Assembly: GCA_018303005.1 (NCBI GenBank)
Contig: JAGVYY010000044.1
Span: 1-18,184, forward strand
Length of the DNA: 18,184 bases
Direction of reading: 5' to 3'
From: Candidatus Woesearchaeota archaeon
GTDB taxonomy: Archaea; Nanobdellota; Nanobdellia; SCGC-AAA011-G17; GW2011-AR20
Of the stretch, positions 1,396-14,792 are shown in pieces. Each line of letters begins with the position of its first letter. The stretch's first letter is position 1. A program made the position numbers and the translations under genes. Below the pieces are notes generated by a model that searched no databases, was not told where the DNA came from, and worked only from the letters and a program-made list of their open reading frames with translations.

Positions 1396-2769
1396 ATGGC
1401 TTATGAATTCAGATTTCCAGATGTTGGAGAAGGAATTACAGAAGGTAGTATAGTCAAATGGAGGGTTAAAGAAGGCTCTAACATAAAAAAAGACCAGGTA
1501 ATTGCTGAGATTGAAACAGACAAGGCTGTTGCTGAAATTCCAAGTCCTGTTGCAGGCAAGGTCTTAAAAATTAGATTCAAGGAAGGAGAAACCATAAAAG
1601 TTGGAGAGGTTTTGATAATAATAGATGATGGGTCTGCTGCAAATGCTGGAAAAAAAGAGACTGATGAAAGCAATGAATTTGTCAAGGAACAGCAAAAGAA
1701 CAATGCTAAAGACATTAAAGAGATAAAGACAACAGCAAAAGCCCAAAAAATTAAAAAATCTGTAGGTGTTGTTGGAGAATTAGAAGAAGACAATGGGAAA
1801 ACTCATTCTAGTATAAGCTCTAGGGTTGATATTGAAACACCTAAAATTAGAGTGACATTGTTTGTCAGAAAATTAGCCCAGGCATTAAATGTTGATATCT
1901 CAAAAATAAAGGGAACTGGAAACAACGGACTGATAACTGAAGATGATGTCAAGAATGCTGTCCAGCCAGGAAACTTGCAAGGTTCCATTGAAAGAAATAT
2001 CCCAGATGACCAAAATGCTGAACCTGATACAAACAAAGAGAAGACAAATGAAGTCAAACCAGTCAGAAAATACGACATGTTTGGATATATAGACAGGGTT
2101 CTGTTAAAAGGTATAAGAAAGATAACAGCAAAACACATGATTGAATCTGAGAATAAGGCTGTCCATGTCACACATATTGATGAGGCTGATATCAGCAACC
2201 TAGATAATATAAGAGAAAGAGAAAAAATAAATGCTGAGAAAAAAGGAACCAAACTGACATTTCTGCCATATGTCATGAAAGCCTGTGTTGATGCTCTGAA
2301 GAAGCATCCTTACCTGAATGCTTCAATTGATGAAGAGAACAATGACATTCTGCTGAAGAAGTATTATAACATTGGGTTTGCTGTTGACACAGAAGATGGG
2401 TTGATTGTACCTGTGATGAAAGGAGCTGACCAGAAAAATGTATTTGACATTGCAAAAGAAATCGGAAACCTAAGTGAACAAGCCAGAACGAGAAAGATAG
2501 ATTTATTTGACCTAAAGGGAGGGACATTCACAATAACCAACATAGGTTCTATTGGAGGATTATATGCCACCCCAATAATAAACTTCCCTGAATCTGCTAT
2601 CTTGGGATTAGGAAGAGCTTATGATAAGCCTGTTGTTGTAAATGGAAAGATCGAGATTAGAAAAGTATTACCTTTTTCACTGTCATTTGACCATAGGATT
2701 CTGGATGGAGCAGAGGCTGCAAGATTTGCCAATGACATGAAAAAAGTTTTAGAAGAAGCTAATTTTTAG
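1396..2769 (+). CDS. 2-oxoacid dehydrogenase complex E2 component (dihydrolipoamide acyltransferase)
   Basis: N-terminal lipoyl domain with IETDKA lipoyl-lysine motif. Peripheral-subunit-binding domain (VRKLAQALNVDISKIKGTGNNGLITEDDV). C-terminal catalytic domain with the DHRILDG active-site motif. Confidence 0.9.
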   Translation: MAYEFRFPDVGEGITEGSIVKWRVKEGSNIKKDQVIAEIETDKAVAEIPSPVAGKVLKIRFKEGETIKVGEVLIIIDDGSAANAGKKETDESNEFVKEQQKNNAKDIKEIKTTAKAQKIKKSVGVVGELEEDNGKTHSSISSRVDIETPKIRVTLFVRKLAQALNVDISKIKGTGNNGLITEDDVKNAVQPGNLQGSIERNIPDDQNAEPDTNKEKTNEVKPVRKYDMFGYIDRVLLKGIRKITAKHMIESENKAVHVTHIDEADISNLDNIREREKINAEKKGTKLTFLPYVMKACVDALKKHPYLNASIDEENNDILLKKYYNIGFAVDTEDGLIVPVMKGADQKNVFDIAKEIGNLSEQARTRKIDLFDLKGGTFTITNIGSIGGLYATPIINFPESAILGLGRAYDKPVVVNGKIEIRKVLPFSLSFDHRILDGAEAARFANDMKKVLEEANF

Positions 2770-3849
2770 GCTTTTATAAATTTTTATATACTTGTTTATT
2801 TCAATATTAGATATCTCACTTGGGAACATTTCTTTAAATTCTTTAGAAAATTTTCTTCTTAATCTATATGTATTACTGTATTTTGCATATCCTAACCATC
2901 CTTCAACGCTAGAATAAATTTTATCATAATCAATTCCATTATTATCAAATTTCTTTTTAAATATTAAAAGTTGTCTTTGCATTTTATTTATATTGCTTTT
3001 CTTCAACAATTTATGATAATAAAAAACTCTAAAACCCGGTAGACCTACTCCTTTATTTAAAAGGATAATCTTAGATTTATCAGGATGTAACTCTAATTTT
3101 ATTGCTTTTAATAATTCATTGATTTTATTTTTATAATCAAATAGAATTAATTTACTATAATCCAATATCACAAAATCATCAACATATCTTATATAATATT
3201 TTGCTCTTAATTCGTGTTTAACAAACCGATTGAGTTCATTTAAATAAATGTTAGCAAAGAACTGAGAAGTTAAATTCCCTAGAGGCATACCTTTATTTTT
3301 TTCTTTAAAATAATAGTTTTCTAAAATTATTTTTATTAACCATATTACTCTGTTATCTTTTATCTTTCTTTTAATAAGATTCAATAAAACTTCATGATTA
3401 ACAGTTTCAAAGTAATGTTTAATATCTGGTTTCAGTACATATACCTTCTTAGTATTATTATGACTTATTTTTCTTTTAAAACAATCAAATCTTTTTAAAG
3501 CTTTTAATGTTCCTTTATCTTTTCTATTAGCATAAGAATCATAAATAAAAGTTTTATCAAGTATTGGTTCTAGGATATTAACTAAAGCATGATGAACTAC
3601 CCGATCTCTAAATTTTGATTTGCTTATCTTTCTAGTTTTTGGATCTTTAATAATAAATGTTTTTAATGGATTTGGCTTGTAAGTATAAAATAATAATTCA
3701 TATCTTAATTGCAGCAAATTATCTTCTAAATTATTCTCAAATTCAAGAACATAATATTTTAGAGTTTTATGTTTTCTTGCTTTTTTAAAAGCTAGCTCTA
3801 AGTTTTCATAATTACATAGATCATTCCATAAATTTTTATAGGTCTTCAT
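2749..3849 (-). CDS. DGR-type reverse transcriptase
   Basis: YVDD catalytic box (YIRYVDDFVIL). Motif 4 is PLGNLTSQFFANIYL, matching the DGR hallmark [LIV]GxxxSQ rather than the group II intron QGxxxSP. The N-terminus (FENL..AFKKARKHK..., IKDPKTRKIS..FRDRVVHHAL) is typical of DGR RTs. A TR lies immediately upstream on the same strand. Confidence 0.85.
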   Translation of the reverse strand: MKTYKNLWNDLCNYENLELAFKKARKHKTLKYYVLEFENNLEDNLLQLRYELLFYTYKPNPLKTFIIKDPKTRKISKSKFRDRVVHHALVNILEPILDKTFIYDSYANRKDKGTLKALKRFDCFKRKISHNNTKKVYVLKPDIKHYFETVNHEVLLNLIKRKIKDNRVIWLIKIILENYYFKEKNKGMPLGNLTSQFFANIYLNELNRFVKHELRAKYYIRYVDDFVILDYSKLILFDYKNKINELLKAIKLELHPDKSKIILLNKGVGLPGFRVFYYHKLLKKSNINKMQRQLLIFKKKFDNNGIDYDKIYSSVEGWLGYAKYSNTYRLRRKFSKEFKEMFPSEISNIEINKYIKIYKSLKISFF

Positions 3850-3880
3850 TAATATTGGCTTGACATTTACCTGGATTATT

Positions 3881-3962
3881 CCAACGAAACGCCCATTGTT
3901 GTTGAGATTGTTGTTGTCATTAAGACCATTGTTGTAGTTGTTGCCAAGATACAGCAGGCGCC
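3881..3962 (-). repeat. DGR template repeat (TR), non-coding
   Basis: The minus strand reads CGCCTGCTG TAT CTT GGC AAC AAC TAC AAC AAT GGT CTT AAT GAC AAC AAC AAT CTC AAC AAC AAT GGG CGT TTC GTT GG. There are 11 AAY codons in the VR frame. It is homologous to 4284-4362 and sits 31 nt upstream of the RT start. Confidence 0.7.
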
Positions 3963-4153
3963 ACCGAGTAGCTCTTTCACTTTAAAAAGCACTGCTACTT
4001 TATCTTTCATTTCTTACTAGATGTTATAACTGTATTTCACAACCATCAATTAAAATGGTCATAGCAAAAGAGCATGTAACCCAGACAATACTCCAACTTT
4101 GCTAATTGAATAATGTCAAGGTAAAATAAAAAAGAAATAATTGATATAAAAGA

Positions 4154-4868
4154 TTATTGGTGTAATGATCTTAATCTTGCTTCGTATTCTTCTCTTGCTA
4201 TCTGAGGAACAAAATCCTCTGAAATCTTTAATATTTGCTCTAAGCAGGGGTGTAAAATTTTTTGCGGGACGTCATCGCGTACCCCGACGAAACGCCCATT
4301 ATTGTTGATGCAGTTGATGCCATCAAGGCCATTAATATCGTAGATGAGGTACACTAGGCGTCCTAATGGCTGTTCACGTAAATCATCAGAATGCCAAATT
4401 CCTATTTGATCACCATAAACTTCTTCATGTCTTTCCAAATATCTTTGAGCTCTTTCTTCTCCACCTAAAAAAGGTATTGTTTGTGGATGTTTTAGAGCTC
4501 TTTTGACAGGAATTATTCCAGATTTAGAGTTCTTTAATTCTTCATAATCTACTACAAAAACTAATTTATTTCCTTGTTGATCTTTAATCCCTTCAAGATC
4601 AACTAATCTTTGAAATTCTTCCTGTGGTATTATCCCAGCATAATTTACTAATCTGTTTTCTTCAATAGTTTTCCTTATATTTCCATGATCAGAAAAATAA
4701 TTATCAACATGACCATAAACAACAACAGGATTTCCTTGCCTTGTTATTCCAGTTGCTCTAATGCTTGGAGATGTAAACCAGGTTTGCCATATTCTTGAAC
4801 CTTTATCAGAAAAATTCTTTTCCTTCTAAATACCTTGTTACAGGAACTTTTATTATTTCGTTTGACAT
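4154..4868 (-). pseudogene. DGR target (variable) protein gene, interrupted by a 1-nt frameshift in an A4/T5 run near 4806-4822
   Basis: ATG at 4868 gives MSNEIIKVPVTRYLEGKEFF then a stop at 4806-4808. The adjacent frame is open with no stop from 4825 to 4154: KEKNFSDKGSRIWQTWFTSPSIRATGITRQGNPVVVYGHVDNYF...LVYLIYDINGLDGINCINNNGRFVGVRDD...RSLHQ. The ORF track only reports the last 94 aa, from a TTG at 4438. Removing one T from the TTTTT run restores a 237-aa ORF. Confidence 0.6.
4284..4362 (-). repeat. DGR variable repeat (VR) inside the target gene
   Basis: Hand alignment to the TR uses a +403 offset on the plus strand. The 3' block is identical (AATGGGCGTTTCGT). TR AAY codons are replaced by ATC, TAC, GAT, ATT, GGC, TGC and others, encoding YLIYDINGLDGINCINNNGRFVG. 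Confidence 0.6.
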
Positions 4869-5591: not shown

Positions 5592-5868
5592 GTGGTAGGC
5601 TAGGTTGGGAATTTGGCCCTATTCCTGTTGCCGTAAACGGGCCTCATGACGGAACTGAAGCTTGGGAGGCGGTATATTGGTATGTTATCTGCCTTGATCC
5701 AGACAAAGATCTTCTGCCCTATTTGGCTGGTATTTTTGGAAACCCAGTCAGGCTAGGAATAGAGCAGCTGTAACCATTGGTATTGGCGCTTATAGGATTA
5801 CAGAAGGGAGAAAGGATCAAGATAACAAATAACATATCTTTATACCCACTTCCTTGCAAGCCTACTTT
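5592..5868 (+). ncRNA. Signal recognition particle RNA (archaeal 7S / SRP RNA)
   Basis: An ORF-free island of about 280 nt, GC-richer than its surroundings. The 5' GGUAGGCUAGGUUGGGAAUUUGGCCCUAUUCCUGUUGCCGUAAACGGGCC resembles the archaeal Alu-domain start (GGCUAGGC.GGG...CCUGUAACCGGAAACC). The helix-8 motif is CAGUCAGGCUA-GGAA-UAGAGCAGC, with a GGAA tetraloop at 5756-5759. The 5' GGUAGGC pairs with the 3' GCCUAC (5860-5865). UAUGUUAUCUGCCUUGAUCC pairs with GGAUCAAGAUAACAAAUAACAUA as a long helix 5. A U-tract follows. Confidence 0.8.
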
Positions 5869-8754: not shown

Positions 8755-9147
8755 ATGGATAATAATTCAATTTTTGAGGCTGGAATAAGAATAGGTTGGA
8801 TAGAGAGTTTCTATAAAACTGTAACAGAAAAAAGTACAGGATTTTTAATAAAAGCAAGAGAAAAACAATTTAACCCTATTGGTGCAGTGTTACTCTCCGG
8901 AGATTACGGAAGCCCAGAAAAGTTTATGCATAAAGCTGAAGCCTATAAATATCAATTGTTACATGCATATCAAGAATATCACTCTATTAAACAAGAATTC
9001 TCTAACTTAGCTTATTTTAATAATGAGGCGGCTAACACGTTTAGATTAGAATTAGAACATCAAAACGGTTTATCTACCATTGATGAAGCAATCTCTGTGT
9101 TAAATGGATATCTAGAAACTGAACGTTCTAGCCAGAAGCGTGTTTAA
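8755..9147 (+). CDS. Hypothetical protein (about 130 aa), first gene of a two-gene operon divergent from TrmB
   Basis: A TTTATATATA box at 8725-8734 lies about 25 nt before the ATG at 8755, suggesting a leaderless transcript. The stop overlaps the next start (TAATG). No family recognised. Confidence 0.5.
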   Translation: MDNNSIFEAGIRIGWIESFYKTVTEKSTGFLIKAREKQFNPIGAVLLSGDYGSPEKFMHKAEAYKYQLLHAYQEYHSIKQEFSNLAYFNNEAANTFRLELEHQNGLSTIDEAISVLNGYLETERSSQKRV

Positions 9148-9920
9148 TGATTATGAATTATAACCTTGTAAAAAAAATCAGTACTTATATTTTAAGTTTT
9201 GTCTTAACTTTTACAGTTCCAACTATCTTACATGCTGATGATATATTAAAAGGACCTATACCTAAGAAATCAAAATTTCAGCTAGATACCAGATTTACTT
9301 ATACAAGAAATGAGAAAGGTATTACAACTTTAACTAATAATATAATAGGAAAATACTGGGAAGGAGATAGATTAGGCAAATGGGTTTTTATTAATGTACC
9401 GTATAAGTCCGTTATAAATGATCAAGAGTCAAGCAATGGTTTCGGTGACATAACTGTTGGTGTTGGTCCTGGAGGAAGAATAAATAACTTACATATATTA
9501 TCTTATTTTGCCTTAACCTTTCCTACTGGAGATTCTAATGAAAGACCTGCTCTAGGCAATGGTAGATATGATAAAAAAATTGGAGTTGTTCATACATTTT
9601 TGACTAATGATAAAGGATTTGAAATTGATACAACTGTGGAATATAATCTTACAGGTGTAAATAACAAAGATATTAATCCTCCGAATGAGTTTTATTTTGG
9701 TTTTATATTTGGTGGTAAAATTAATGAGCGAATAAGATTTGCAACCGGACTTACAGATTTAGTTAAAGCAAATGGAGATTTTTTATTAAATTCTAGATCT
9801 GTTCTAAGATATACATTTTCACCTAAAATACATCTTGAAGCTTTGATTGATCATGGAATTCAAAACCATAATGTTTTAAAATATGATGGACTAAGTTTAT
9901 TTTTAAGGTATAATCTTTAA
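9147..9920 (+). CDS. Secreted beta-rich protein resembling bacterial MetA-pathway/outer-membrane transporter beta-barrels
   Basis: N-terminal signal peptide (KKISTYILSFVLTFTVPTILHA). Alternating hydrophobic/polar strands throughout. Motifs NGFGDITVGVG, FPTGD and LGNGRYD are reminiscent of the Phenol_MetA_deg-type barrel family. This is assigned from memory, not a search. Confidence 0.4.
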   Translation: MIMNYNLVKKISTYILSFVLTFTVPTILHADDILKGPIPKKSKFQLDTRFTYTRNEKGITTLTNNIIGKYWEGDRLGKWVFINVPYKSVINDQESSNGFGDITVGVGPGGRINNLHILSYFALTFPTGDSNERPALGNGRYDKKIGVVHTFLTNDKGFEIDTTVEYNLTGVNNKDINPPNEFYFGFIFGGKINERIRFATGLTDLVKANGDFLLNSRSVLRYTFSPKIHLEALIDHGIQNHNVLKYDGLSLFLRYNL

Positions 9921-10884: not shown

Positions 10885-11124
10885 TTAGCTACACTTTTCC
10901 AGGCATATTGAGCAGTCATACTTCTTTAGTATTCTGCATGTTTTAATCTCATTGCCTTCATTGTACTGGCAACAAACCTTTAAGTCTGTTTTGTTAAATT
11001 CTATATCTATTGTGTCTTGCAATTCTGCACCGACAGCCCTTGTTTCATTCCTATTTTTGATCAAAATCAAAGATGTTGCAACCAACAATACTATTACTGC
11101 AAGTGCCCATGTTGATGATTTCAT
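10885..11124 (-). CDS. Small secreted or membrane-anchored Cys-rich protein (79 aa, 6 Cys)
   Basis: N-terminal hydrophobic segment WALAVIVLLVATSLILI, then TRAVGA, then a C-terminal CC...C...C..C...C pattern. The start lies 1 nt after the stop of the signal peptidase gene. Confidence 0.5.
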   Translation of the reverse strand: MKSSTWALAVIVLLVATSLILIKNRNETRAVGAELQDTIDIEFNKTDLKVCCQYNEGNEIKTCRILKKYDCSICLEKCS

Positions 11125-11125
11125 T

Positions 11126-11629
11126 TTAGTATATTACTCCTACCAATACGCTCCTTACCCGGCTGAATCTAACTTTTTCAGGATCAGGTTCATTGTTGTT
11201 GTCACCTTTTACAGTATAGTATAAACCTTTTTCATCATTTTTAATACTTATAACCCTATGGATTATTATCTCATTTGTCAGAGTTGATCTGTAGGATATT
11301 ATATCTCCGACCTGGATATCTTCAGCAGATACAGGAGTTATCTGAATTGCATTTGACCCTTTACCGAAAAACGGCTCTTCTGAATGAGTATCTGCAAAAG
11401 ATGCGTATTTGGCATCCTTTATTTGAATAACAACCTTATCAGGATATATTTTTATCTGCTCTTCGCTTATCCTGTCTTTTGGATATGGCTTTGCCCCATA
11501 TACAAATTTGTCAATAACATCATTGAATGGTTTTTCCAAGGTCCTATTATTTGCCTTGTCTATTGCAAGTGCTATGAACAACATTATAACAGCAAATATG
11601 AACACAAACCGTAGTATAATCTTGAACAT
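11126..11629 (-). CDS. S26-family signal peptidase I (Sec11/SipW-like)
   Basis: N-terminal TM segment. Ser motif HSEEP is a variant of SMEP. Other motifs: VGDIISY, IIHRVI (catalytic His) and VKGDNNNEPD (GDNN..D box typical of ER/archaeal-type SPases). Confidence 0.65.
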   Translation of the reverse strand: MFKIILRFVFIFAVIMLFIALAIDKANNRTLEKPFNDVIDKFVYGAKPYPKDRISEEQIKIYPDKVVIQIKDAKYASFADTHSEEPFFGKGSNAIQITPVSAEDIQVGDIISYRSTLTNEIIIHRVISIKNDEKGLYYTVKGDNNNEPDPEKVRFSRVRSVLVGVIY

Positions 11630-11630
11630 C

Positions 11631-13817
11631 TTATTCCCTATTAAGGCCTTCGATAAATTTGTCTAGATTATTGTTTTTCGGGCCTTTTGCGAGAAAGAAT
11701 ACTGCTAATGCTATTGCCAGCAAAATTATAAAAGGAATCAACCATATAAGATATGTCTTTTTGCTTTTTGTTATGCCTGGAGATGAACTGCCTGTAAAAT
11801 TTTCTTTGTTTGTATCTTGCTCTACGATATTATTTTTTTCTGACCCTGCTGTCTTTTGCCTGTCATACAAATCTTGATCTTCAGTGAATGTCATTTTTAT
11901 CGGCAGTTTTGTTTCAGTGAACTCATCAGACATGATTATTAGTTCTCCATCATATATCCCTGTAATGTTCTTGTTTTTATTTATTATCAATCTCTGATGC
12001 TTTATCTCATCCTTACTTATTGAAGTAAACCTGTCTTTCTCGAGTTCTATTACTTCATTTAGGTTTCCTGTTAGCATAAATGTAATGTTGTTTAATTGAT
12101 AATCCCATGTGTTTGTTAGATTAAATTCCTTTATAGCCTGATCTTTCTTTAAGAATATATCATCTATATATTTCCTTTTGCTTAATATAGCTATGGAGTT
12201 TTTTGGCGGCTGGAGCAATGGAGTTATTATATTGTACTGTGTTTTATTGCTCTTATTACTCTGCTCGGTCATGTTTGTCATGTTTACTGTGTTGGATGTT
12301 ATAACAGGTATTACATATGAGTGGTTGCTGTATCTTATTTCTATATTAAAATCTCCCTGATGTTTTGGTATTGCAATTTCAAAGATATTTATGTCTGTCA
12401 GCGTGAATCTTTGAGGCATATCTGTAAAATTTGGCGCAACAACATCGACTGCAACAGGAAGGTCATCCCGGCTCTTCATTATCAGCTTAAATGAATCTTT
12501 TTTATACACTACTCCGGGAAATATTGATATTACTGGATTTTTCCTCTCTGCATTCAGAAAGAAATATAATATCAGCGACGATGTCAAAGGATCTTTTGTT
12601 GTCTGTCTCTCTAAAAAATCCAGTGATTTCTTATACTGTTCTGTATCTTTCAAAGATAATGTCGCGAATATTGACGAATAGACATCAATGTTTTTCTGGC
12701 CTGAAGATGTTTCATATGGCCAGGCATTTGAGTCTGTTATCACATTGGCTAATAACCAGTCTTTAGCATAAGGGTTATTTTTTATTAAATACAACAAGGC
12801 CTGATCAATTGTTTTTTTATCAGATGGATTCTTTTCAAACCAGTCTGTTCTTACTTCCTGGCCAATCTTCTGTAAGACATAGGTTGAGATGCCTGTTGCT
12901 TCGTAATCGCAAGATGATCTGTATTCTTTGCCGAAGCATCCAGTATTGTCTATCATTATGCTAATGTTTTTTATTTCTGCATTATAAGTTATTCTCTCAT
13001 TTCCGAGAAATGAATGTCTTAAAATGACTTTTGTGCTCTGCTGGCAGCTGATGGCCATATCTGGAGATTCAATATCAATTGTCTGCTTACCAGTTACATG
13101 ATAATCTTTATTGTTAACTGCACATTGCGAATTTCCTGAATAAAGGCTTAATGTCCATTTCCCAATGTTGAAGTTGTTCTGGGCATCGAGCAGATAATTT
13201 CTTGTTTTTAATGTCTCTTTGTTAAATTCTTTTAAAGCCAATAATGCAAATGCGGTGTCTTTGATATTGCAATTGTTTTTTGGATAGCATCCTTCTTCAT
13301 CCTGGTTGTTCATTAAATAGTTCAATGCTCTCTGTGCATTCTCGGGATAGACATTTTTCAATGCTAAAGATGCGATGGCTGTTTCACTTATTGTATTAAA
13401 GCCTCCATCTGTATTCTGTTTTGATAACAGGAAATAAAAACCTGAATTAATTTTATTTATATAAATCTCTTTTATTTCAGTCTTTTGTTTTAAGAATCCA
13501 TCTTCAACATACTGGATATTCTTTATCTGAAATTTATACTTATCTTTTTCAACATCCGGGATATTGAAATAAACAAAATAATGCTGGTCTGATAATTTTT
13601 CTATAAAGTATTGCACTGGAATTTCAGTGCTTTCATTTGTTAATTTTAAGTTTTGAATTGAAATCTGGTTTAATGGTTTTATATCTGTTATAATTTCAAC
13701 CTGGACTGTTTCTTTTATTGAGTATGTATCTCTTGGTGTTGTTATCGTTATAGAAGATGCATGAACGCTTATTGTTATAAACAGTAAGAATAAAATATAT
13801 AATAAACTCTTTTTCAT
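11631..13817 (-). CDS. Large surface protein with prenyltransferase/squalene-oxidase-like (alpha/alpha-toroid) repeats and a C-terminal TM anchor
   Basis: Signal peptide MKKSLLYILFLLFITISVHA. Repeats QNTDGGFNTISETAIASLAL / NQDEEGCYPKN..IKDTAFALLAL. C-terminal TM segment YLIWLIPFIILLAIALAVFFLA followed by basic residues. Confidence 0.7.
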   Translation of the reverse strand: MKKSLLYILFLLFITISVHASSITITTPRDTYSIKETVQVEIITDIKPLNQISIQNLKLTNESTEIPVQYFIEKLSDQHYFVYFNIPDVEKDKYKFQIKNIQYVEDGFLKQKTEIKEIYINKINSGFYFLLSKQNTDGGFNTISETAIASLALKNVYPENAQRALNYLMNNQDEEGCYPKNNCNIKDTAFALLALKEFNKETLKTRNYLLDAQNNFNIGKWTLSLYSGNSQCAVNNKDYHVTGKQTIDIESPDMAISCQQSTKVILRHSFLGNERITYNAEIKNISIMIDNTGCFGKEYRSSCDYEATGISTYVLQKIGQEVRTDWFEKNPSDKKTIDQALLYLIKNNPYAKDWLLANVITDSNAWPYETSSGQKNIDVYSSIFATLSLKDTEQYKKSLDFLERQTTKDPLTSSLILYFFLNAERKNPVISIFPGVVYKKDSFKLIMKSRDDLPVAVDVVAPNFTDMPQRFTLTDINIFEIAIPKHQGDFNIEIRYSNHSYVIPVITSNTVNMTNMTEQSNKSNKTQYNIITPLLQPPKNSIAILSKRKYIDDIFLKKDQAIKEFNLTNTWDYQLNNITFMLTGNLNEVIELEKDRFTSISKDEIKHQRLIINKNKNITGIYDGELIIMSDEFTETKLPIKMTFTEDQDLYDRQKTAGSEKNNIVEQDTNKENFTGSSSPGITKSKKTYLIWLIPFIILLAIALAVFFLAKGPKNNNLDKFIEGLNRE

Positions 13818-13946: not shown

Positions 13947-14792
13947 GGTGATTGAAGCATTTTAGCACCAAAAAAGCTTATAATTAAGCTAAACTACGAC
14001 GATTGTAATGAAAAAAGAGTTGTCAGACATGTATTTTTTAGGTAGAAAATGCATAATTTGTAATAGATATGGATTGTACAAATTAAAGAATAGAAGAAGG
14101 GTTAAGTGTAAACACTGCAAGAAGTATTATTCACTAAAAAGGTTAAGAAGAGATCTAGATATTTTATATTACTTCTATCTTGAAGTCTCTGCTAGAAAAA
14201 CAGCTAAAGAAATGGAATTGGATTATGGAGTAGTTCATAGGAGGTTTATGGAATTTAGAAAGCTTATTGCAAACTACTGTAATGAACAAGCAATAAGGTT
14301 AAATGGAAAGATTGAGTTAGATGAAACTTACTTTGGTGGAAAGAGAAAGGGAAAAAGAGGTAGAGGTTCTAAGAATAAAGCTATTGCCTTTGGAATTCTC
14401 GAGAGAAAAGGCAAGGTTTACACTGTTATCATAGAAAATGTTTCAGCAGAAACATTAATGCGGGAAATACAAAATAAAACTAGGAAAGGCTCTGTATTTT
14501 ATACAGATGGTTTTAAGAGTTATGCTAGTTTAAGGCAATATGGAAAGCATGATACTATTGATTATGATTATAGTTATGTAAAAGGTAAAACACATATTAA
14601 TGGAATAGAAGGCTTTTGGAGTTACTCTAAAGAAAGGTTCCATAAGTATCATGGCATTAACAAAAAGAACTATCCATTGTATCTAAAAGAAATGGAATTT
14701 AGGTTTAATAACAGAAAGGAAAATGTTTTAAAGTTATTAGTTGATATATGTATAAGGAGGCGTAGAATTAGTGCCAAATTGCACTAATCACC
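13947..14792 (+). mobile_element. IS1595-family insertion sequence (about 846 bp)
   Basis: Imperfect terminal inverted repeats: GGTGATTGAAGCATTTTAGCAC (13947-13968) and the reverse complement of GTGCCAAATTGCACTAATCACC (14771-14792), about 17/22 matching. They bracket a single transposase ORF whose stop lies inside the right IR. Confidence 0.7.
14008..14787 (+). CDS. IS1595-family (ISXO2-like DDE) transposase
   Basis: N-terminal zinc ribbon (CIIC...CKHC). IELDETYFGG, KRGRG, KAIAFGILER.GKVY, YTDGFKSY and HINGIEGFWSYSKERF..YHGI....YPLYLKEMEFRFNNR are hallmark IS1595 DDE motifs. Confidence 0.85.
   Translation: MKKELSDMYFLGRKCIICNRYGLYKLKNRRRVKCKHCKKYYSLKRLRRDLDILYYFYLEVSARKTAKEMELDYGVVHRRFMEFRKLIANYCNEQAIRLNGKIELDETYFGGKRKGKRGRGSKNKAIAFGILERKGKVYTVIIENVSAETLMREIQNKTRKGSVFYTDGFKSYASLRQYGKHDTIDYDYSYVKGKTHINGIEGFWSYSKERFHKYHGINKKNYPLYLKEMEFRFNNRKENVLKLLVDICIRRRRISAKLH

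Follow-up and report, generated by a model that had tools for sequence, protein, structure and literature searches.

An AvpA-type diversity-generating retroelement in a Woesearchaeota genome with a donor module that looks intact and a probably uncoupled adjacent target

The subject of this report is a stretch of 18,184 nucleotides (nt) from a Candidatus Woesearchaeota archaeon (GenBank assembly GCA_018303005.1, contig JAGVYY010000044.1), called the window throughout, and in particular the diversity-generating retroelement (DGR) on its minus strand. The window is archaeal: it encodes Hjc, TrmB and Cdc6/Orc1, has a G+C content of 31%, and one of its open reading frames (ORFs), of 94 amino acids (aa) at positions 4154-4438, is identical to MBS3134539.1 (J4214_04885) from a Candidatus Woesearchaeota metagenome-assembled genome (MAG). 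The DGR comprises a target gene with a variable repeat (VR), a template repeat (TR) and a reverse transcriptase (RT) gene, arranged target-TR-RT on one strand, and is a chromosomal AvpA-type DGR of a DPANN archaeon, a kind of element that has already been described. Such a cassette in a DPANN genome had been proposed from the DNA alone (hereafter the original prediction), and the proposal was borne out: the RT is closest to Brt and the resemblance of TR and VR exceeds chance. The evidence set out below suggests that the donor half of the element looks intact and that the gene beside it is no longer its working target.

The RT gene (2749-3849, minus strand) is a 366-aa ORF that carries, as predicted, LGNLTSQ and YVDD motifs; it is apparently intact, the former motif reads MPLGNLTSQ in full, and the product matches Pfam RVT_1 (E 5e-21). 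Its best match among solved structures is 8ub7_A (E 6e-42, 147 bits), which is brt of Bordetella phage BPP-1 (100% identity), whereas the scores of group II intron RTs and of a retron-type RT are 77 bits or lower (group II E 1e-20 or worse). The protein appears to be an RT of the DGR class, closest to the prototype DGR enzyme Brt. More than 380 relatives are present in metagenomes, and an alignment of 83 members of the clade yielded 78 highly conserved columns as well as an invariant LGNLTSQ. The window RT is off consensus at one of these columns (D207N), which is also the family median, and the enzyme therefore looks intact. Its identity to the RTs of clean AvpA-type DGR loci is 56-64%. None of the ORFs in the window matches an Avd-type Pfam family, and no such ORF is listed in the related loci L002-L005 and L008 either. 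At its other end the RT gene overlaps a convergent dihydrolipoamide acyltransferase (E2) gene (1396-2769, plus strand) tail to tail by 21 nt (2749-2769); the DGR has housekeeping genes on either side, and nothing in its surroundings points to a mobile element or a virus.

The TR is a non-coding stretch of 82 nt (3881-3962, minus strand) that holds 25 adenines and, in the frame of the VR, reads RLLYLGNNYNNGLNDNNNLNNNGRFVG and has 11 AAY codons; 31 nt separate its end from the start of the RT gene. The VR of the next gene upstream, referred to as VR-A, lies in frame at 4284-4362 (minus strand), with 79 nt aligned to the TR. Both repeats thus occupy the places, and the TR has the approximate length of 80 nt, that had been assigned to them. 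The repeat is not due to chance: the local alignment of TR and VR scores 66 compared with 23 +/- 2.7 (maximum 32) in 500 dinucleotide shuffles, and the 14-mer common to both, GGGCGTTTCGTYGG, is expected 0.01 times in the window. The residues that the original prediction listed at TR AAY positions (I, Y, D, I, D, G, I, C) stand with two corrections, namely that one D arises from TAC to GAT by non-adenine changes, and that G results from an adenine change in a GAC codon (GAC to GGC), so neither of the two reflects an AAY codon.

The 3' edges of the repeats carry candidate initiation of mutagenic homing (IMH) motifs, an IMH*-like TGGAAT at the TR (3878-3883, minus strand), as read from the letters, and an IMH-like CGGGGT at the VR (4281-4286, minus strand), the latter being also found in the clean relative L002. 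The motifs published for nanoarchaeal and archaeal DGRs are TGGGGT for IMH and TGGAAT for IMH* (Paul 2015, PMC4372165). Many clean relatives have stems of 5-7 bp with a GAA loop downstream of the VR. No GC-rich hairpin with a GRA loop was found after VR-A, only an imperfect inverted repeat, CGCGA-TGACG-TCCCG (4265-4279, minus strand), which was read from the letters at the site of the GC-stem hairpin of the relatives. The MAG carries a second AvpA paralogue, type B (P0117, J4214_02755; locus type L009), whose variable repeat, VR-B, is followed at the equivalent place by the perfect CGCGA-TGACT-TCGCG. A crude minimum free energy scan and an exact-stem scan across the family did not correlate hairpin loss cleanly with non-adenine mismatches; several clean loci have no detectable hairpin, and the loss of the hairpin is therefore weak evidence only.

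The gap 5' of the TR contains a structured RNA that the original prediction had missed. The 304 nt between target and RT genes are occupied by the TR and by an RT-16 RNA (Rfam RF03019) at 3963-4121 (minus strand), which matches the model from 1 to 158 of its 158 positions with 87.7 bits (gathering threshold 50), lies directly 5' of the TR as a structured leader, and fills the space between it and the target stop codon. This arrangement recurs in the family: of 58 related RT loci, 54 have an RT-16 on the same strand as the RT, and its 3' end abuts the point at which TR and VR become homologous (median -2 nt, n=27). A TATA-like box, TTTATATC (4143-4150, minus strand), can be read some 25 nt ahead of the 5' end of RT-16, and similar boxes stand at a similar distance in several related loci. 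The genome is AT-rich, and the box may represent a putative archaeal promoter of the TR RNA. The RNAs RT-1 to RT-19 have been described only as RT-associated, with RT-10 linked to the BPP-1 spacer (Weinberg 2017). Our literature search found no paper that assigns RT-16 a role, and the link between RT-16 and the TR is the only part of the present analysis that adds to published knowledge.

The target gene belongs to a well-characterised family. There are 109 homologues of the protein that contains the VR; every one comes from DPANN-type archaea, and all of them are without a Pfam domain. A profile search of the target, suggested beforehand as a test for a C-type lectin fold, gave a match to AvpA (PDB 5IOO): the homologue profile covers it along its length with E 3e-114, and the intact allele P0112 alone matches residues 15-267 with E 5e-82. 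The N-terminal 170 aa, which had been considered unassignable to any family, also correspond to AvpA. By sequence the target is an AvpA-family protein, i.e. a C-type-lectin-fold archaeal variable protein. The AvpA crystal structure (5IOO) defined a new C-type-lectin subclass with the motifs GxxVVVYAH, HPxxxPFxG and RFxGV (Handa 2016, PMC5006420), which correspond to GNPVVVYGH (A to G with respect to the published motif), HPQTIPFLG and RFVGV in the window target. AvpA has an internal VR with 46 residues after it, and the IMH encodes the beta5 strand RFxGV; AvpA-like proteins beside an RT and a TR have been reported from groundwater archaea (Handa 2016, PMC5006420). VR-A ends 130 nt ahead of the end of the stop codon, which leaves a tail of about 43 residues. 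The original prediction thus placed the VR correctly at about 40 aa from the C-terminus and erred in calling this unusual; the two features singled out as unusual both describe AvpA and are therefore the family norm.

The gene is no longer continuous in this MAG. Its 3' portion extends in the frame of the VR from 4825 to 4154 (minus strand) without a start codon before a TTG at 4438, and its 5' remnant (4806-4868, minus strand) consists of the ATG at 4868 and 20 codons, identical to the N-terminus of intact homologues, followed by a stop. Alignment to the intact alleles of L001 and L008 locates the cause at the junction 4810-4811, just after codon 19-20, where 92 nt are missing that correspond to positions 6059-6150 of L008; owing to this deletion the ATG at 4868 opens an ORF of only 20 aa. 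The repaired target of 237 aa put forward in the original prediction conceals the loss of these 92 nt relative to the sister contig. The deleted residues are equivalent to AvpA 12-42, between beta1 and insert 2, where the core helices alpha1 and alpha2 sit, and the frame is shifted, so that the single ORF for a complete C-type-lectin-fold domain is lost in the window and intact in L008. An independent assembly contains an allele (P0116) with a different, in-frame deletion of 90 nt in the same N-terminal segment (KEFYAD/KGS), and deletion alleles therefore seem to be real. We also considered whether programmed +1 frameshifting at the T5 run of the junction might rescue the gene; it would formally restore the frame, but the product would lack alpha1 and alpha2, and nothing supports it.

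The relationship between TR and VR-A departs from that expected of a working pair. Their alignment over 79 nt contains 20 mismatches, 8 at TR adenines and 12 elsewhere, and one 3-nt gap, while a second alignment gave 8 adenine and 11 non-adenine mismatches; about 40% of the mismatches are at adenines (Fisher p = 0.25 for adenine enrichment). All 8 adenine mismatches fall on codon positions 1-2 of AAY or GAC codons, and 9 of the 12 others on codon position 3, which indicates an old adenine signature overlaid by silent change. The same script was applied to related loci as a benchmark. In most of the 51 that have a TR/VR pair, 7-23 mismatches are at adenines and 0-2 elsewhere (11 and 0 in the AvpA-like locus L004, 13 and 1 in L002), and the window locus is among about five outliers. 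An adenine share of at least 75% is nearly universal in DGRs (Roux 2021, PMC8144416), and the pair of TR and VR-A falls below it. Since any homing event would erase internal non-adenine differences, VR-A has not been rewritten from the window TR since they arose. A non-adenine mutagenic bias of the window RT can be rejected as the source of these differences, because the non-adenine changes are mostly silent third-position ones and the sister loci of the RT clade are strictly adenine-biased.

Comparison across assemblies, which throughout is a comparison of consensus sequences, gives a similar picture. Contig L008, from another sample, represents the same locus; over 10.9 kb it is 99.5-99.97% identical to the window, and in RT-16, TR and VR the two do not differ at all. 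The VR-A peptide is the same in seven (P0001 and P0110-P0115, from different samples) out of eight members of its 90%-identity cluster, each from a separate assembly, and other segments of the protein vary; the sole variant, in P0116 (G to S), is not an adenine-type change. Neither VR-A nor VR-B shows any diversification that is visible at the consensus level. The target gene contains a mosaic block (4566-4712, minus strand): 19 of the 21 single-nucleotide polymorphisms between window and L008 over 10.9 kb fall in these ~150 nt, and the alternative versions of the block, HVDNYFSDHGNIRK or HIPNYFSDPENLRK, are found in both paralogue types. Between types A and B, the first 540 nt show 6 differences and the 60 VR positions 18. 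When assemblies are compared, both AvpA paralogues prove to be mosaics composed of two haplotype blocks, and chimeras of A-VR with B-tail and B-VR with A-tail (P0113, P0125) are among them; this pattern reflects either gene conversion between the paralogues or chimeric assembly. With blocks exchanged between paralogues in this way, the flanks are useless as a clock for the divergence of TR and VR-A.

The working scheme of DGRs is established for these elements generally, and for the present copy it would run as follows. A transcript would start at the RT-16 leader, continue through the TR and be copied by the RT, which would misincorporate opposite template adenines; the resulting complementary DNA (cDNA) would then replace the VR, which is predicted to encode the ligand-binding face of the target, a protein with a C-type lectin fold. 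The donor half of this scheme, i.e. the promoter-like box, RT-16, the TR with its IMH* and the RT, looks intact. Regarding the recipient half, we infer that the adjacent VR-A is no longer being rewritten and that it is inactive at present. In our estimate there is a probability of roughly 80% that the locus is a known AvpA-type DGR whose donor module is intact and whose adjacent recipient is uncoupled from it and, in this MAG, disrupted. The working diversifier that was implied by the original prediction gives way to this account, given that only some 40% of the mismatches are at adenines, that the VR is invariant across assemblies and that the target is truncated and frameshifted. VR-A itself is either a fossil, altered by drift in situ, or the product of a different template.

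Several observations weigh against an uncoupled and disrupted recipient. RT, TR and RT-16 show no decay, which would be unexpected of an element that has long been dead. The 92-nt deletion is absent from L008 despite the near-identity of the two contigs, which could mean that only a subpopulation carries it or that assembly produced it. Indels of 3 nt also occur in otherwise clean TR/VR pairs (L002, L016, L036), and for this reason the 3-nt indel by itself proves nothing. Low-frequency VR variants may exist in the population beneath the consensus, and the shuffling of paralogue blocks makes the age of the mismatches between TR and VR-A undatable.

The undecayed state of RT, TR and RT-16 could also be explained if the donor module acted in trans, on the remote type-B paralogue or on an unassembled target, with the adjacent gene as a discarded former target. 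Neither an RT nor a TR is present at the type-B locus, and the stem after VR-B is a perfect inverted repeat of 5 bp where that after VR-A has a mismatch. When donors were scored with adenine mismatches free of charge, the window TR was by far the best donor for VR-B, with a perfect 5' match of 33 nt followed by 7 adenine and 4 non-adenine mismatches; none of the TRs scored, the window TR included, is a good donor for VR-A, and none better was found among 90 loci. AvpA homologues without an adjacent RT, TR or RT-16 occur at L006, L007 and L009 (e.g. P0004 and the type-B paralogue) and are either remote targets or orphans, and remote diversification of RT-less targets has already been considered (Paul 2015, PMC4372165). 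A search for the TR pattern with adenines as wildcards (A to N) returned 0 matches, not even the TR itself, from the JGI metagenomes and GTDB genomes, collections that do not contain this organism. On the other hand, the VR-B peptide is identical in 14/14 cluster members and its DNA in three assemblies, and the 4 non-adenine mismatches persist along with two indels (+3 and -6 nt) relative to the window TR. We regard activity in trans as possible and, on balance, unlikely. Much the same weight is given to the view that the 92-nt deletion arose as an artefact, in assembly or in the consensus, from two near-identical paralogues and that the real genome carries a target as intact as that of L008. 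In addition to the near-identical, undamaged L008, the type-B copy P0117 of the MAG starts exactly at the right-hand deletion junction (SDKGS...), at a contig end, which suggests that the assembly graph broke there, and chimeric A/B versions of the gene exist in other assemblies. The microhomology at the junction, ~2 nt, is too short to mislead a k-mer assembler, however, the in-frame 90-nt deletion of P0116 stems from an independent assembly, and an artefact of this sort would leave the mismatch pattern between TR and VR unrepaired anyway.

Still less probable is that the DGR is canonical and fully functional, diversifying the gene beside it, and that the frameshift is a sequencing error. Its layout is complete with IMH and IMH* motifs, the target is intact in L008, and the 8 adenine-site changes at AAY or GAC codons show that mutagenic homing took place in the past. 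Yet any homing would erase the 11-12 non-adenine mismatches, the VR is identical across assemblies although other parts of the gene vary, the defect is a deletion of 92 nt and not an error of 1 nt, and even an in-frame version would be without two core helices. It is highly improbable that the RT derives from a group II intron, a retron or a defence system and that the repeat is incidental. The top NCBIfam match of the RT is a group II intron RT/maturase model (151 bits, cutoff 300), and several defence-associated RT (DRT) models match weakly, but every model remains below its cutoff. No NCBIfam or PADLOC model reaches its cutoff with this RT, and neither library appears to include a DGR-specific one. 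The RT scores 147 bits with Brt and at most 77 with group II RTs, the LGNLTSQ motif is invariant in the clade, members of which adjoin adenine-specific TR/VR pairs in dozens of loci, and Rfam identifies no intron RNA domains at the locus and RT-16 instead. An AvpA-type DGR with an uncoupled neighbour accordingly remains the reading that we prefer.

Within the AvpA-type DGRs of Nanoarchaeota and groundwater DPANN archaea (Paul 2015, PMC4372165; Handa 2016, PMC5006420; 5IOO), the window element conforms in its one-stranded target-TR-RT order, the homology of the target over its full length (E 5e-82 for the intact allele), the three motifs, the internal VR with its tail of ~43 residues, the ..GGGGT and TGGAAT forms of IMH and IMH*, and the groundwater metagenome habitat. 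Its RT is 64% identical to the one beside a near-identical AvpA gene in L004. It differs in that the mismatches are not adenine-specific (8 versus 11-12), no GRA-loop hairpin follows the VR, the target is cut by the 92-nt deletion, and RT-16 and the TR, rather than an Avd-like ORF, lie between target and RT. With the BPP-1 DGR (mtd-avd-TR-brt) it shares a homologous RT (E 6e-42) with xGxxxSQ and YxDD motifs, a TR just upstream of the RT, a VR in a C-type-lectin-fold protein and the IMH/IMH* logic at the 3' ends of the repeats. Unlike BPP-1 it has no avd, its VR is not C-terminal, the C-type lectin fold is of another subclass, and it is located on an archaeal chromosome and not in a phage. In BPP-1 the conserved RNA structure is the spacer on the 3' side of the TR (Rfam RT-10), whereas that of the window is on its 5' side (RT-16), and 31 nt lead from the TR to the RT start. 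RT-less or 'fossil' DGR target fragments and the DGRs that metagenome surveys scored as inactive (Paul 2015, PMC4372165; Roux 2021, PMC8144416) resemble the window in having a VR with an old adenine signature and no sign of current rewriting, and in remote RT-less paralogous targets; they differ from it in that the fossil-like VR of the window adjoins an apparently intact RT, TR and leader RNA.

The remainder of the window holds a few other features. An archaeal signal recognition particle (SRP) RNA (RF01857, 134 bits) is encoded at 5593-5867 (plus strand) between the genes of a HAD hydrolase and a methyltransferase, and the predicted TTG start of the latter (5854) overlaps its 3' end. A 257-aa ORF (9147-9920, plus strand) matches Pfam PF13557 (Phenol_MetA_deg) with E 2e-10 and is kept in L008; this family consists of bacterial outer-membrane-type proteins, and its presence in an archaeon is unexpected. 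Further along, ORFs of 728 aa (11631-13817), 167 aa (11126-11629) and 79 aa (10885-11124) succeed each other on the minus strand, all three without a Pfam match, and are adjoined by an IS1595-family transposase gene (14008-14787, plus strand).

As originally posed, the finding adds very little, given that AvpA-type DGRs of groundwater DPANN archaea have been in the literature since 2015-2016, a crystal structure included. Its lesson is rather that a textbook target-TR-RT layout need not mean a working element: once non-adenine mismatches are counted and assemblies compared, the copy reads as an uncoupled or fossil target and no longer as an active diversifier. Tentatively, and with the odds against it, RT-16 could serve this large archaeal DGR clade as the leader through which the template RNA functions, in place of Avd and the 3' spacer RNA that act as scaffold or in priming in the Bordetella phage element; in this genome the intact module would then persist because a remote paralogue is rewritten by it in trans, the adjacent former target meanwhile decaying. 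Its position at the exact 5' boundary of the TR makes RT-16 a candidate, open to experimental test, for an RNA that would organise the synthesis of cDNA in archaeal DGRs without Avd.

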